This document shows, piece after piece, positions 36,971 to 56,869 of a stretch of DNA of 64,000 nucleotides. A program made the position numbers and the translations under genes. Position 1 is the stretch's first letter; every line of letters starts with the position of its first letter. The notes beneath the pieces are model-generated. The model worked only from the letters and a program-made list of their open reading frames with translations. It was not told where the DNA came from and did no database searches. Source of the stretch: a virus (Duplodnaviria > Heunggongvirae > Uroviricota > Caudoviricetes); the IMG/VR virus record IMGVR_UViG_3300029305_003072. One strand, given 5' to 3'.

Positions 36971-37558
36971 CTAAAGCATCGCAAGACACTTGGCGGTTTC
37001 TTCTCTCATCATTTCAATTGCATCATCCAAGAGGATAGGAGTGCAATTATTGGAGTCCATGCCCACATGGAACATATAAGGCATATCCTCATAAAATCTC
37101 TTCTGTTGATGAGTATGACCGAAGAGATTGATTAGATGCATTCTCAAATAAGGAGCTTTCTCCAAATTGGAAGTCATTGTAGGATGGTGGCTCAAATAGA
37201 AGTTGTACTTCTTGTACTTCATCATAGCCGCCGCAGGCTGAAGACCATTTGCAAGAGGCTCCAGCACAGTCACATTGGGCAACTGCTTATACAACTCAAT
37301 GCGGGCCGCAGTATCGTGGTTGCCAGGGATGATGGTAATGTGACCATTCAATCTCTTCAAGCAACTAATACCATGAGCATTGTCATTAAGCATTACATCG
37401 CCCAAATGGAAAACTTCATCTTCGGGATTGACCACAGAGTTCCATCTTCGGATTACCTCTTCATCATGCTCCTGGATGGAGGTGAAGCCACGAGGTCCGT
37501 AGAGGAATTCTCGGTCATGACCGAAGTGAGTATCACTCGTTACAAAAGTTCTACTCAT
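36971..37558 (-). CDS. Calcineurin-like metallophosphoesterase (probable phosphatase partner of the Pnk kinase)
   Basis: DTHFGH...GDVMLNDNAH...GNHD motifs. The start overlaps the kinase stop (ATGA coupling). Confidence 0.65.
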   Translation of the reverse strand: MSRTFVTSDTHFGHDREFLYGPRGFTSIQEHDEEVIRRWNSVVNPEDEVFHLGDVMLNDNAHGISCLKRLNGHITIIPGNHDTAARIELYKQLPNVTVLEPLANGLQPAAAMMKYKKYNFYLSHHPTMTSNLEKAPYLRMHLINLFGHTHQQKRFYEDMPYMFHVGMDSNNCTPILLDDAIEMMREETAKCLAML

Positions 37559-38100
37559 ACATTTACCTCCTTTGTGACACCCTCTGCGTTAACCGCGTAG
37601 ACGTGGGTGAAACCCTCTTCCGCAGTGGGATACGCAAAGGACTTAAACATATTATCAATCGCACTCACGGGAACTCTTGCTCGACCGGAGCGGAGTGAAT
37701 TTCTTGCCTGGCAAAGCTCACGAGGCGTTGTGAAACACACACAGTTAAGCTCACCAATATTATTTTTCTTGACTCGATTAAGAGTTTTGTTACGAGAACG
37801 CTTATTCAAATGAGTAGCGTCGATGTAAATAGTGTGAATATCTTCTCTTTCAAGGGTCTGATTGATGTAGTTAATGAAAGTGTCGAATACTTCATCCTCA
37901 TGGGAGAAATACTCTTCATCTTCACCAACAATGGCAAATCTCACATTGTCGCGAGAAATCCATTCAGAACCAGGCGTAATATTCGCACGCACCCACGTGG
38001 ACTTACCCGACGCAGGAGGCCCCGACAAAAGATAAACTTTCTTTAGCTTCATCCTTATACACCCCATTAGCAAAATTTTCACGAAACTCTTCAACTTCAT
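37555..38100 (-). CDS. P-loop polynucleotide 5-prime-kinase-like protein
   Basis: LLSGPPASGKSTW Walker A, small size, and T4-Pnk-kinase-like order of motifs. Confidence 0.55.
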   Translation of the reverse strand: MKLKSFVKILLMGCIRMKLKKVYLLSGPPASGKSTWVRANITPGSEWISRDNVRFAIVGEDEEYFSHEDEVFDTFINYINQTLEREDIHTIYIDATHLNKRSRNKTLNRVKKNNIGELNCVCFTTPRELCQARNSLRSGRARVPVSAIDNMFKSFAYPTAEEGFTHVYAVNAEGVTKEVNV

Positions 38101-38269
38101 CGAATGTCTTACACTCGATATGATTTACTTCGCATTTGCAGTGAACACAGTAGAGTTTCTTTCGGTGCATCCCCTCGTGCTTGAAACCTTGCTTACGCAT
38201 CAAGGGGATGCCCTTATTACCGCAGTTAATACAGTAAAAACTATGTTCTGCATAGCCCCTGCGGGCCAT
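38003..38269 (-). CDS. Zn-ribbon protein, 88 aa
   Basis: CINCGNKG...CVHCKC. Confidence 0.35.
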   Translation of the reverse strand: MARRGYAEHSFYCINCGNKGIPLMRKQGFKHEGMHRKKLYCVHCKCEVNHIECKTFDEVEEFRENFANGVYKDEAKESLSFVGASCVG

Positions 38270-38511
38270 TAAGACTTACTCCTTACAGTCACAGTATGAC
38301 CGAACAGGATATGGCACAGCCACTGGAGACCAAAAGCCTGCCAGTAACCAATCACCGGGAGTCCAAACAGACTCACAGCAATCCAGTTCCACAGCCACAT
38401 CGTAATAGCAGGACCCAGGAACAACAGGGCAATCAGACCGATGATGATGAGAATTGCGGCACCGCAACCAATTTCATCATGACTTGACCAAGCATTTCTA
38501 CTCATTTTCAT
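38269..38511 (-). CDS. Small membrane protein
   Basis: Two TM segments, with a promoter upstream. Confidence 0.35.
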   Translation of the reverse strand: MKMSRNAWSSHDEIGCGAAILIIIGLIALLFLGPAITMWLWNWIAVSLFGLPVIGYWQAFGLQWLCHILFGHTVTVRSKS

Positions 38512-38538
38512 TTCATTCCTTTCTTTATCTTACATATA

Positions 38539-38567
38539 TATTATATCATATTTTTTTATAAAAATCA
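38539..38567 (-). promoter_or_regulatory. Promoter cassette TTGATTTTTATAAAAAAATATGATATAAT
   Basis: Member of the near-identical 34-bp cassette family. Confidence 0.65.
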
Positions 38568-38568
38568 A

Positions 38569-54595: not shown

Positions 54596-55498
54596 TTATG
54601 CCATGGCCTCCTTTAGCATCTTCGCACGAACAGGATTTCTGAGCTTACGGATAGCCTTATTTTCAATCTGGCGAATACGCTCCTTGGACAGGCCATAGTG
54701 CTGACCAACTTCCTCAAGAGTCATAGCCTTTTCGGCATCAATACCGAAACGCATCTTGAGAATTTCAGCTTCACGAGCGCCCAGAGTGTCAAATACCGCA
54801 GCGATAATCTGACTGTTCGCTTCACGGATAATATTTGCCATAGGATTCTCTGCACTGTGGTCCGCAATTAGGTCGCCCATACAGGTTTCACCCTCATCAT
54901 CAACGGGGGTGTCGAGAGAGGTAGTAGCCTGTGCCAGGTCCATAACAGTCTGGACCTTGTCCAGTTCAACGCCCATATGAGCCGCAATTTCCTTATCAGA
55001 GGGAGCTCTGCCGAGCTTCTGAGTGAGTTCCGCAGTTGCCTTCTTCACCTTAGACAGGAGTTCAACCATATTAGCAGGAATACGAATGGTACGAGATTGG
55101 TCGCCCAGTGCGCGAGAAATGGCCTGGCGAATCCAGTAAGTTGCGTAGGTAGAGAATCGGAAGCCCTTGGAGCCATCGTACTTTTCAGCCGCCTTAATCA
55201 GACCGAGATTGCCCTCCTGGATGAGGTCAAGCAGCGGCAAGCCGCAACCATAATACTTCTTCGCAACAGATACAACCAGAAGCAGATTGCACTCAACCAG
55301 AGTGTTTACCGCATCTCTGTCGCCTGCGAGAGCCTTAACAGAAAGTTCCTTCTCCTGGTCAAAAGACAGGCGAGGATGATTGCCAATAGACTTTAGATAA
55401 GCCTTAACACCATCCAGAACAACATTGGTATCATAATCATAGGTCTCGTTCATTTCACGAGCATCTTCTTCCATAATCATAACTTCATTCTGTTCCAT
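54596..55498 (-). CDS. Sigma-70 family RNA polymerase sigma factor
   Basis: Region 2 [10 protein letters not shown] and region 4 [29 protein letters not shown]. The start at 55498 has an AGGAG RBS. Confidence 0.85.
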
Positions 55499-55519
55499 TA
55501 TGCACTCTCCTATCAAACT

Positions 55520-55708
55520 TTATCTTTTTTCATTTTCTATATATATTATAACATATTTTTTTATAAAAATCAAATAAGCCCTTTCTGTTGAGAAAGGGCT
55601 TATCTTTTTAATTAGCCAATGTTTTATTAGCTGTTCTAAATCGCCAATAGTGGCGAGCATACTGAATGGCATTGTAGCCATCAACGCTACACAGCCACAT
55701 TGCGACAC
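55520..55708 (-). CDS. Hypothetical protein, 62 aa
   Basis: ORF only. Confidence 0.25.
   Translation of the reverse strand: MSQCGCVALMATMPFSMLATIGDLEQLIKHWLIKKISPFSTERAYLIFIKKYVIIYIENEKR
55545..55573 (-). promoter_or_regulatory. Promoter cassette upstream of the sigma-factor gene
   Basis: Conserved cassette with a hairpin. Confidence 0.65.
55565..55601 (-). terminator. Rho-independent terminator
   Basis: Stem aagccctttct/agaaagggctt. Confidence 0.6.
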
Positions 55709-55732
55709 AAGTCAGAAAACCACGAATATCCA

Positions 55733-55972
55733 TTAGTGAACCCTCCAAGTATAACCACATTGCTGACAAGAGCAATAAGTTTGAACTTTAGTTTTTGTTC
55801 GCTTTGGAGCAAAGATTTTAAACACTAGAGCAGGTAACGTAAAAAAGAGCCATTTCATTGGCACCCAAAACCATCCCCAGCAAATCCACCACAATAATCC
55901 ATGATGTTTGTTTTTAGTAACAGCAACTGCTTGAGTATTTACATTTGTGCTTCCACATTTAGGACAAACCAT
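55733..55972 (-). CDS. Zn-ribbon membrane protein
   Basis: CPKCGS...CQQCG flanking a Trp-rich TM segment. Confidence 0.4.
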   Translation of the reverse strand: MVCPKCGSTNVNTQAVAVTKNKHHGLLWWICWGWFWVPMKWLFFTLPALVFKIFAPKRTKTKVQTYCSCQQCGYTWRVH

Positions 55973-55978
55973 AATATT

Positions 55979-56869
55979 TTACATTCCTTCCTCTATATAA
56001 ATTACTTTATCAACATATTTGCGGTCCTCACCTTTGAGAATCGGCATATCGTAGTCAATACCGGTTTCACGAGTCCAGGCAGTGCCACGCTTCCAACGAG
56101 TTGGAAAATCGTTCCAGTTGATACCTTTTTGCTCGTGGAGCATATCTTGGATTACGCTACAAGAGCAACCCTGGAGCTTACTGTGAGAGAAGAATGCCTG
56201 ACCAACCATCTGAATGGAGTTGCGGGTTGCGTCAAGCTGGCGCCAGTAAATCAGATTACAGGCTTCCTCTTTGGGAATGTTGAACACGCGAGAGTCGAAC
56301 ATAGCACCAATAGATGCTTTCTCGCAGTAAAGACTATATAGCTTATCCTGCTGCTCCCACCATTCGGGGTCAGTGTGACGAGGGTCGCTCCACTGACGGC
56401 TACGCCAAGTACCAACTTCCTCGGCAAAATATTTGTTGAACGCCATGGTTGCCATAGAAGCAGAGATAGAACACATCTTCTGTACTTCATAATCGAACCA
56501 GGCACTGGTATCGAGAGTCTGGTAGTCAATCAACAGGAGAGTGATTTCGTCAGACTGGGTGTAACCGAAGACACAACCCTGGATATTTCTACACAGATGT
56601 TCCATGGTTTTTACCATCGCATTTCCCAGCACTTTATCGAAAGGCTTTTGGAAGCCACGAGTGAAAGTGTGGAAGGCTTTACCGTCGAGGCGAATTGCGA
56701 CGGGCATTCGTCTCACCAAACGGGTTTTCGGCACCTGCTCGTAGAAAGTTTTCATACGAGTGCCAAGAGCATCATTCACTGGCATTTTTTCTCTTCTCCT
56801 TCCAAGCTGCACAGTAGTGTGTAGGTTTTTCATATTTGCGGCTTCTCTTACAATAGCATTTTCCTTCAA
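55979..56869 (-). CDS. Thg1-like 3-prime-to-5-prime nucleotidyltransferase (tRNA-His guanylyltransferase family)
   Basis: VAIRLDGKAFHTF and GYTQSDEITLLL match the Thg1 motifs VVRLDGRNFHRF and YGQSDEYSFVF. Confidence 0.7.
   Translation of the reverse strand: MKENAIVREAANMKNLHTTVQLGRRREKMPVNDALGTRMKTFYEQVPKTRLVRRMPVAIRLDGKAFHTFTRGFQKPFDKVLGNAMVKTMEHLCRNIQGCVFGYTQSDEITLLLIDYQTLDTSAWFDYEVQKMCSISASMATMAFNKYFAEEVGTWRSRQWSDPRHTDPEWWEQQDKLYSLYCEKASIGAMFDSRVFNIPKEEACNLIYWRQLDATRNSIQMVGQAFFSHSKLQGCSCSVIQDMLHEQKGINWNDFPTRWKRGTAWTRETGIDYDMPILKGEDRKYVDKVIYIEEGM

Follow-up and report, generated by a model that had tools for sequence, protein, structure and literature searches.

A predicted RNA end-healing and sealing system linked to a Major Vault Protein homolog in an uncultured jumbo-phage lineage

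Host defenses that cleave tRNAs and other RNAs are common, and to our knowledge the repair answers of phages besides T4 Pnkp/Rnl1 come nearly all from genome comparison. A 64,000-nucleotide stretch of the Caudoviricetes record IMGVR_UViG_3300029305_003072 (the whole stretch analyzed, hereafter the window) contains dispersed genes for a polynucleotide kinase, an RNA ligase, a Thg1-like polymerase, several phosphoesterases, and a Major Vault Protein (MVP) homolog, raising the question of whether they form one RNA-repair system or share a region for other reasons. Judging from sequence, the window probably encodes a set of enzymes with which a gut jumbo-phage lineage heals, rebuilds, and seals RNA ends. 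Family identities, intact catalytic motifs, operon structure, and conserved linkage carry this assignment, with catalytic residues essentially invariant across 34-70 homologs per family. An earlier sequence-only reading had proposed a repair kit of a split Pnk, an Rnl5-like ligase, and a Thg1-like polymerase; its ORFs are all present at the coordinates it gave and all the identities it named passed profile searches, but the kit proved larger, comprising in addition three phosphoesterases (PE2, PE3, and PE4), a DEDD exonuclease, a cREC protein, a zinc ribbon, an SPFH protein, and the MVP homolog, and Thg1 turned out to be only an occasional member. Almost every gene of the window lies on the minus strand, including all those whose coordinates are given below.

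Enzyme families of the candidate repair system

The gene at 51348..52766 was assigned to the ATP-dependent RNA ligases of the Rnl5 (DraRnl/NgrRnl) type, with an N-terminal OB module followed by a nucleotidyltransferase (NTase) domain, and three independent profiles agreed on this family. Its OB domain matched PF21189 (PHA02142 OB; 6e-7, residues 6-102) and the protein matched TIGR02306 (RNA_lig_DRB0094; 6e-18, residues 9-196) and phrog_968 “RNA ligase” (4e-68), with PF09414 (RNA_ligase) at 26.5 bits, slightly below its cut-off of 27. A profile of 10 homologs retrieved NgrRnl (5cot) first among PDB entries (5e-5) and T4 Rnl2 second, aligning ligase residues 5-193 with NgrRnl residues 8-176, a match that spans the OB domain through motif I only; a direct PDB sequence search with the ligase gave no match. 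All six nucleotidyltransferase motifs are intact: motif I (K190-L-H-G-T-S) was invariant in 46 homologs, in which R233/R234, E271, Y341-R342, E419-G-x-x-x-R424, and K435-x-K437 were 98-100% conserved. The KxHGxS motif and Rnl5 affiliation read from the sequence were thus upheld, the motif-I lysine being present on alignment, and the description of a tRNA-binding OB fold was fair, given the described kinship of the Rnl5 N-terminal module with the PheRS B2 OB fold (PMC1807946). As in DraRnl of Deinococcus and NgrRnl of Naegleria, the OB domain precedes an NTase domain that carries motifs I to V, and in place of a C-terminal domain there are just ~35 mostly acidic residues after K437; the window ligase exceeds both in length by ~130 residues and has extra segments inserted between motifs I-III and III-IIIa. 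Its AlphaFold2 model (mean pLDDT 48.5, from a shallow alignment of 76-100% identity) was too poor for fold comparison. Characterized Rnl5 ligases seal duplex nicks (PMC1807946, PMC4408790), the reaction typical of the family being Mn-dependent and joining 3'-OH and 5'-PO4 ends where the 3'-OH strand is RNA; their physiological role has been called “uncharted” (PMC5397189), and phage homologs were noted in 2007 (PMC1807946); the ligase type is annotated in 381 deposited phage records.

A stand-alone Pnk-family polynucleotide 5'-kinase domain is encoded at 37555..38100 (Pfam AAA_33, 5e-15; PHROG “polynucleotide kinase,” 3e-19; NCBIfam bacter_Pnkp, 4e-13), its true start probably lying at 38067 or 38052. 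The best solved relatives were the kinase domain of Clostridium thermocellum Pnkp (4gp6, 2.7e-8) and T4 Pnk (1ly1, 1.8e-6), and the phage relatives were T4-type Pnk genes and the polynucleotide kinases (PNKs) of Tsamsa-like Bacillus phages; the kinase hidden Markov model (HMM) also matched the PNKs that Bacillus and Mycobacterium phages encode next to Rnl5-type ligases. The P-loop lysine K33 (G32-K33), the general base D51, R54, and R137 were invariant in 39 homologs. A deoxynucleoside monophosphate (dNMP) kinase, the identity that the sequence-only reading had set against its own proposal, was rejected, as the significant matches were all to polynucleotide or related RNA kinases and none to a dNMP-kinase family; by profile the protein is of the Pnk type. 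Directly upstream of the kinase and overlapping it lies the gene of an 88-residue zinc-ribbon protein (38003..38269; CxxC...CxxC), which adjoined the kinase in 35/35 related loci (median overlap ~64 nt). This overlap of ~50-65 nt, in a different frame and kept in 35 relatives, could reflect either normal translational coupling or a programmed frameshift. One related kinase (L081, 11843-12610) has an N-terminal CxxC...CxxC module fused to it.

The kinase stop codon overlaps, as ATGA, the start of the metallophosphoesterase gene PE1 (36971..37558), which is preceded by an AAGGAGG Shine-Dalgarno sequence. PE1 is aq_1665/YfcE-like (Metallophos_2, 1.3e-9; phrog_547, 5e-46; PDB 1xm7 of the Aquifex aq_1665 type, 1e-4), its motifs DxH, GD, and GNHD were conserved among homologs, and it adjoined the kinase in the same order in 38/38 loci; it is regarded as the obligate downstream partner of the kinase and as a candidate RNA 3'-end healing enzyme. 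The predicted translational coupling of a P-loop kinase to a calcineurin-like phosphoesterase was confirmed by the reading frames, the ATGA overlap, and the profiles. Its interpretation as a split Pnkp is ambiguous, for the coupled partner of the kinase resembles aq_1665/YfcE, the C. thermocellum-like phosphatase being the separate gene PE2. No phosphatase is fused to the kinase and PE2 sits in another transcription unit, so that kinase and phosphoesterase at best function like a split Pnkp and do not make up a Pnkp. The kinase unit ends with a 502-residue SPFH/Band-7 (flotillin-like) protein (34834..36342; Pfam Band_7, 6.6e-20), a possible scaffold, whose gene also comes after kinase and PE1 in loci L038, L081, those of the L093 type, and L171.

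The other phosphoesterases belong to different groups. PE2 (38569..39333) is a metallophosphoesterase of the lambda-phosphatase/CthPnkp-phosphatase/ApaH type (PDB 1g5b, 1.6e-5; 4j6o, 2e-4; ApaH, 4e-4), which also matched Ser/Thr phosphatases and, among PHROGs, phrog_246 and positions 178-346 of phrog_8238. On the strength of these matches PE2, unlike PE1, was classed as a true homolog of the Pnkp healing (phosphatase) domain (4j6o) and is a candidate 2',3'-cyclic phosphodiesterase/3'-phosphatase; 2',3'-cyclic phosphodiesterase activity is published for lambda phosphatase and the CthPnkp phosphoesterase (PMC2190708). PE2 lay upstream of the kinase in 30/30 loci having both. PE3 (57016..57756) is a second metallophosphoesterase of the phrog_547 type (3.6e-20; Metallophos, 9e-6), co-transcribed with Thg1 between a promoter at 58159 and a terminator at 55605. 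PE4 (58635..59525; phrog_1649, 1.5e-22) represents a distinct metallophosphoesterase family with invariant metal-ligand motifs, for which no close solved relative was found; in 58/59 loci it followed the RlaP NTase in the same order. Phage phosphatases that extend NARP1 were considered as an explanation for PE1-PE4 and rejected, the enzyme concerned being a Macro-domain protein and not calcineurin-like (10.64898/2026.01.28.702374). A further phosphatase-containing protein may be present in a related locus, where a 732-residue open reading frame (ORF; L075:35-2233), ~8 kb upstream of a Thg1 relative, matched the kinase at its N-terminus (28% identity). With phrog_8238, which is annotated “RNA ligase” and has a profile length of 737, it nearly agrees in size, and this phage protein may be a complete bacterial-type Pnkp (kinase-phosphatase-ligase).

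Three further genes encode candidate RNA 3'-end processing proteins. The pol-beta NTase seen nearby in the sequence-only reading (60000..60887) was verified, with its GS...DxD signature (G59, S60, D71, and D73 invariant in 55 homologs) and phrog_388 (2.6e-15). The protein itself had no Pfam match; 6/8 orthologs (40-93% identical) matched PF10127 RlaP at a sub-curated level (best 1.7e-5), which makes it a probable member of the RlaP family. A direct PDB search returned nothing and an NTase profile against PDB only noise. RlaP adds 1-2 nucleoside monophosphates to the 3'-OH ends of damaged RNA (PMC12776372). The same transcription unit encodes a cREC (cyclic-phosphate-processing receiver) protein (62168..62551; PF20274, 4.7e-18, above the 27-bit cut-off), and the ligase unit, transcribed from a promoter at 54350, encodes a 302-residue DEDD (RNase T/DnaQ-like) 3'-5' exonuclease (53375..54283; RNase_T, 8e-17), a candidate 3'-end trimmer.

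The gene at 55979..56785, within an ORF extending to 56869, encodes a Thg1-like protein (TLP) of the bacterial type in the 3'-5' polymerase family. The Thg1 motifs reported earlier were substantiated by PF04446 (2e-28) and by conserved catalytic carboxylates, D62, S106, D107, and E108 (RxDG and SDE motifs) being 99-100% conserved in 70 homologs; the gene start was corrected, as translation most likely begins at ATG 56785, after GGAAGGAG, giving 268 residues and not the 296-residue ORF starting at TTG. The closest PDB entry was the Bacillus thuringiensis TLP (BtTLP; 4kgk, 2.5e-52), eukaryotic/true Thg1 scoring only ~1e-5. Similarity to BtTLP is strong over the full length and the catalytic carboxylates are kept; the window TLP differs in a 37-residue insertion (ORF residues 152-188), in being phage-encoded, and in its co-transcription with a metallophosphoesterase. 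Template-dependent 5'-end repair has been shown for TLPs (PMC4820378). Thg1-like proteins are annotated in 162 deposited phage records, and the Thg1 gene of Vibrio phage 1.170.O has a COG0617 (CCA-adding-type) gene at a distance of 1.3 kb.

Between the ligase unit and a block of NAD+ genes, with its own promoter and terminator, lies the gene of a near full-length, 838-residue MVP homolog (48089..50605; MVP_shoulder, 2e-23; Vault_3), residues 320-790 of which align with residues 335-814 of rat MVP (4hl8; 2e-23, ~470 residues). A 2023 preprint described MVPs of phages but makes no mention of ligase, NAD, or Thg1, and a 2026 preprint refers to Burroughs and Aravind (2016) on bacterial MVP homologs and operon non-coding RNAs (ncRNAs) implicated in RNA repair.

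Conserved gene neighborhoods

Linkage of these genes was examined in 80 viral loci fetched around Thg1 relatives and 78 around MVP relatives, all searched with 44 window proteins. Within 10 kb of MVP, the 78 loci contained RlaP in 52, the ligase in 49, PE4 in 46, PE2 in 38, cREC in 32, the kinase in 29, the zinc ribbon and NADAR in 26 each, PE1 in 25, the DEDD exonuclease in 22, and Thg1 in 10, and all 924 of the 924 matches shared direction with the anchor gene. In these phages the MVP gene heads a compact repair cluster, the commonest order being MVP, cREC, RlaP, PE4, (exonuclease), ligase, ..., PE2, zinc ribbon, kinase, PE1, (SPFH), with more than 40 variant gene orders among the MVP loci. 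Sub-arrangements recurred: the NTase was always upstream of the ligase in the 51 related loci having both (median distance 2.7 kb), as was cREC in the 32 it shared with the ligase, and the block NTase-PE4-RNaseT-(cREC)-ligase was found repeatedly. The window is a dispersed copy of this MVP-headed module, interrupted by the NAD+ island. The earlier suggestion that the genes act as a set is therefore backed by conserved, reshuffled, and co-directional neighborhoods in related phages. At L057 the order is kinase, Thg1, PE1 with stops and starts abutting, which fits the published idea that PNK supplies the 5'-phosphate for Thg1-type enzymes (PMC2904730).

Pairing of ligase and kinase also occurs in unrelated phages. 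Bacillus phage vB_BcoS-136 encodes an orthologous ligase (45% identity) followed immediately by a fusion of a Pnk kinase, homologous to the window kinase (2e-10), with an HD domain, so that its healing phosphoesterase has a fold unlike that of the window enzymes; a Band-7 gene lies nearby. In the cluster L Mycobacterium phage Whirlwind, PNK and this ligase type are 4 kb apart. MVP, RlaP, cREC, and Thg1 were absent from the examined stretches of the vB_BcoS-136-type and Whirlwind phages. A Prs-like plus NAMPT-like gene pair was found near the ligase or Thg1 in vB_BcoS-136, Whirlwind, Alishewanella phage Slicko01, and Bacillus phage FADO, which hints at a recurrent association of NAD+ genes and RNA repair in unrelated phages outside this lineage. 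The cultured-phage loci L002, L084, L085, and L244 carry this pair, which defines NARP1, a few kb from the ligase, PNK, or Thg1.

Proposed pathway, competing explanations, and known systems

The substrates, the order of steps, and the roles of the phosphoesterases and of a scaffold we infer as follows. A cleaved RNA would have its 3' end opened and dephosphorylated, with removal of the 2',3'-cyclic or 3'-phosphate, by one or more of PE1, PE2, and PE4 and/or by cREC, and its 5'-OH would be phosphorylated by the Pnk-type kinase with its zinc-ribbon partner. Once the DEDD exonuclease had trimmed the 3' end, the RlaP NTase would put back the nucleotides lost there, while those lost at the 5' end would be replaced by the Thg1-like polymerase copying the opposite helix strand. 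The Rnl5 ligase would then close the resulting 3'-OH/5'-PO4 nick in a duplex context, with the MVP homolog, and perhaps also the SPFH protein, serving as scaffold or container. Since the Rnl5 family seals nicks (PMC4408790, PMC1807946) and TLPs fill 5' ends on a template, this chemistry would suit breaks in helices, for instance in the acceptor or anticodon stem of a tRNA, better than the breaks in single-stranded anticodon loops that T4 Rnl1 repairs.

Several observations weigh against a single RNA-repair pathway or its extension to particular targets. PE2 shares a transcription unit with an NMNAT-like gene and borders the NAD+ island. With 1398 phage records, compared with 381 for the ligase type, the PE1 family phrog_547 is not restricted to RNA repair. 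Thg1 had no repair neighbor within 10 kb in 58/80 of its loci, small ORFs without known function standing there instead. The counts are non-independent, because the loci share descent, dataset 3300045988 supplied many of them, and a few contigs are represented twice; the linkage could in part be inherited synteny inside an accessory-gene region. Duplex-nick sealing by Rnl5 does not imply an anticodon-loop tRNA target, and repair of anticodon loops in the manner of T4 Rnl1 is an assumption here. The 64-kb window has no tRNA genes and, in an Rfam search at gathering score, no match to the operon ncRNA expected from the literature. Finally, HMMs of 13 phage repair families found no match in 54 cellular MVP loci (933 kb), a negative that covers those 13 families only, RtcB, TROVE, and other repair proteins being outside its scope; on this basis either the MVP-repair linkage is confined to this phage lineage or its cellular counterparts employ different families.

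The competing explanation that best withstands the evidence, unlikely as we judge it, is that the phosphoesterases (PE2 especially, perhaps PE1, PE3, and PE4), cREC, and possibly the kinase act on small molecules such as NAD+/ADP-ribose derivatives, Ap4A, or cyclic-nucleotide immune signals, either serving the NAD+ genes or degrading the signals. PE2 could indeed take part in NAD+/nucleotide metabolism because of its match to ApaH, an Ap4A hydrolase, and its co-transcription with the NMNAT-like gene, to which its Ser/Thr phosphatase matches and a NADAR gene upstream of it in many relatives may be added. Further, cREC was defined through linkage to enzymes processing NAD+/ADP-ribose and phage calcineurin-like enzymes have been proposed to degrade cyclic nucleotides (PMC7824862), and phage phosphatases are known to extend NARP1 (10.64898/2026.01.28.702374), though the published enzyme is a Macro domain and thus of a different fold. 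Against this, the nearest relatives of the kinase are polynucleotide kinases, PE1 is inseparable from that kinase, and PE4 is inseparable from RlaP, an RNA-acting enzyme (PMC12776372).

It is rather improbable that the genes are merely co-located, as independent early or accessory counter-defense genes in a hypervariable anti-defense region with no common pathway. Such an arrangement would account for the presence, among the repair genes, of NAD+ genes and of genes for a sigma factor and a T7 gp5.9-like protein, for the presence of one and the same promoter in front of every small unit, and for the many solitary Thg1 genes among loci of shared descent. It accounts poorly for the strict sub-blocks (kinase-PE1 in 38/38, zinc ribbon-kinase in 35/35, and RlaP-PE4 in 58/59 loci) and for the reappearance of the ligase-PNK pair in the unrelated Bacillus and Mycobacterium phages, and the enzyme set fits, step for step, the heal-and-seal chemistry required for RNase-cut RNA.

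That the Thg1-like protein is a tRNA-His maturation enzyme, adding G-1 to phage or host tRNA-His and not a repair polymerase, is very unlikely. Databases annotate the family as “tRNA-His guanylyltransferase” and large phages frequently have tRNAs of their own, but the protein is far closer to the bacterial TLP, a type that performs template-dependent 5'-end repair, than to true Thg1, the window is free of tRNA genes, and the Thg1 gene of L057 is wedged between the Pnk kinase and PE1. Least credible is that the ligase and kinase serve DNA or RNA-DNA junctions in phage replication or repair (closing, for instance, nicks that have a ribonucleotide at the 3' end) and not host-cleaved RNAs, since although DraRnl seals nicks with an RNA 3'-OH strand and its deletion sensitizes Deinococcus to radiation (PMC5397189), DNA is also a substrate of T4 Pnk, and the window has a large replication module with an NAD-dependent DNA ligase, the Rnl5 ligase is linked to the RNA-end enzymes RlaP, cREC, and TLP, whereas the replication genes lie 15-45 kb off and show no such linkage.

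The RNA-repair system favored here can be compared with several known ones. It shares with T4 Pnkp and Rnl1 the phage heal-and-seal logic and a homologous Pnk kinase domain (~32% identity), and T4 also has an RlaP-family NTase (NrdC.11; PMC12776372). The T4 phosphatase, however, is a HAD/DxDxT domain fused to the kinase, whereas the window kinase stands alone with metallophosphoesterase partners; the T4 sealer Rnl1 is specialized for tRNA anticodon loops and the window sealer is of the nick-sealing Rnl5 type; and T4 lacks the Thg1, cREC, and MVP genes found in the window. The bacterial Pnkp/Hen1 and Pnkp1-Rnl-Hen1 systems of C. thermocellum and Capnocytophaga resemble it in the CthPnkp-like kinase (4gp6) and in PE2 (4j6o), CthPnkp using, like PE2, a binuclear calcineurin-type metallophosphoesterase for 3' healing, but the window domains are separate genes, a Hen1 methyltransferase is missing, and the ligase is Rnl5 in place of a C-terminal Rnl4 domain. 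The Tsamsa-like vB_BcoS-136 and the cluster L phage Whirlwind share the orthologous Rnl5-type ligase beside or near a Pnk kinase and the Prs-like plus NAMPT-like pair.

The view that the set extends the T4 paradigm does not originate with this window, as comparable sets are already published. Neighborhoods of Thg1, PNK, and ligase in bacteria and a phage Thg1 were reported by Anantharaman in 2010 (PMC2904730), and the 2021 jumbo-phage survey of Iyer described ATP-grasp-type RNA ligases, RlaP, PNK, cRec linked to ligases, sporadic Thg1, HAD and rarely calcineurin-like or HD phosphatases, and NAD+ systems (PMC7824862). The window has the same parts list with an adjacent NAD+ system, and contains SPFH and MVP, neither of which is mentioned in that survey. 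The concept of an RNA-repair kit is thus already known from comparative genomics as a type of phage counter-defense, and what is particular to this one is its make-up: Rnl5, the kinase with its zinc ribbon and aq_1665-type phosphoesterase, RlaP-PE4, cREC, and the DEDD exonuclease, with the TLP optional and MVP constant.

Burroughs and Aravind reportedly set out a “syntax” of RNA-repair systems in 2016; in the literature surveyed here, outside which that work lies, the zinc ribbon-kinase-PE1 and RlaP-PE4 sub-blocks and the MVP-headed order are undescribed. As a list of parts the module is unremarkable, and its interest lies more in its tractability for studying the functions of Rnl5 and MVP: its presence in many genomes, its strict sub-blocks, and its intact active sites recommend it for the reconstitution of an entire pathway of healing, rebuilding, and sealing around an Rnl5 ligase. 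The association with MVP is what sets the system of this lineage apart and is the part worth following up. The eukaryotic vault consists of MVP, the NAD+-using vPARP, the TROVE protein TEP1, and vault RNA, and an MVP at the head of a repair cluster beside NAD+ salvage genes offers a concrete route to the old question of vault function. A speculative proposal, to which we give a small chance, is that the phage MVP builds a vault-like shell or scaffold recruiting the RNA repair enzymes encoded downstream, possibly with an RNA partner, as a viral “repair vault.” If true, this would be the first experimentally tractable system giving a vault protein a defined molecular job and would support descent of eukaryotic vaults from conflict-driven RNA-repair machinery.

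Window layout, lineage, and transcription

A near-identity DNA search with positions 48000-58000 found no match among known or deposited phages. Identical copies of the ligase protein were found on ~20 metagenomic contigs of up to 406 kb, and the relatives are viral contigs of 75-240 kb and contigs binned with metagenome-assembled genomes of gut Bacillota; the source is an uncultured jumbo-phage lineage known from metagenomes only, which probably infects gut Firmicutes. The first 34 kb of the window encode a replication module (PolIII-alpha-like polymerase, Dda-like and DnaB-like helicases, primase, RecJ, NAD-dependent DNA ligase, and two topoisomerase II subunits), PhoH, and a lysis protein, the last a multi-domain endolysin of 777 residues (30283..32616) with peptidase, endolysin, and amidase-type PHROG matches.

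The NAD+ island (39503..47996) lies between PE2 and MVP and probably merges NAD+ reconstitution of the NARP1/NARP2 type with salvage. It encodes an NMNAT-like protein (39503..40081), an AAA_28 kinase (40468..40995), NADAR (40996..41511), NadE (41524..42330), a 168-residue protein with a weak Macro match (42333..42839), a NAMPT/Namat-like protein (42839..44386), SIR2 (45054..45827), YqeY (45831..46349), a Prs/Adps-like protein (46368..47195), and an isochorismatase/PncA-like protein (47406..47996). Between the ligase and Thg1 units, a full-length sigma70-family factor with regions 1.2, 2, 3, and 4 (54596..55516) is co-transcribed with a T7 gp5.9-like putative RecBCD inhibitor (54361..54594).

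A sigma70-type promoter, TTGATT-N17-TATAAT, matched 17 times in the window, always on the minus (gene) strand, against 0.15 matches expected by chance, and recurred in every related phage locus at 5-15 copies per 20 kb. In its fuller form the cassette reads TTGATT-N17-(TG)nTATAAT with a ~25-nt leader containing a Shine-Dalgarno sequence, often with a terminator hairpin upstream. The copy at 38540..38568 drives the unit of zinc ribbon, kinase, PE1, and SPFH; other copies start at 40457, 44624, 48050, 50668 (50640..50668), 54350, 55573, 58159 (58131..58159), 59566, and 63034, and another spans 34685..34713. Promoters and terminators divide the region into short transcription units, namely cREC ... 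RlaP; PE4; PE3-Thg1; sigma factor-gp5.9-like; exonuclease ... ligase; MVP; two NAD+ units; NMNAT-PE2; and zinc ribbon-kinase-PE1 ... SPFH. The host-type promoters suggest early transcription by the host polymerase.

Conserved structured intergenic segments were considered as ncRNAs and rejected, since they proved to be these promoter-terminator cassettes. The sole Rfam match at E<1 was an L20 leader at 63035..63134 on the minus strand (29.5 bits and E 0.046, well short of the gathering score, 58.7), which overlaps such a cassette and is most likely a chance match. Downstream of the SPFH gene, a 181-nt gap (34653..34833) folds more stably than shuffled sequences (z about -3), and ~100 nt of it are kept in L038 (74% identity); because the promoter copy at 34685..34713 lies inside it, this gap may be regulatory instead of an ncRNA.

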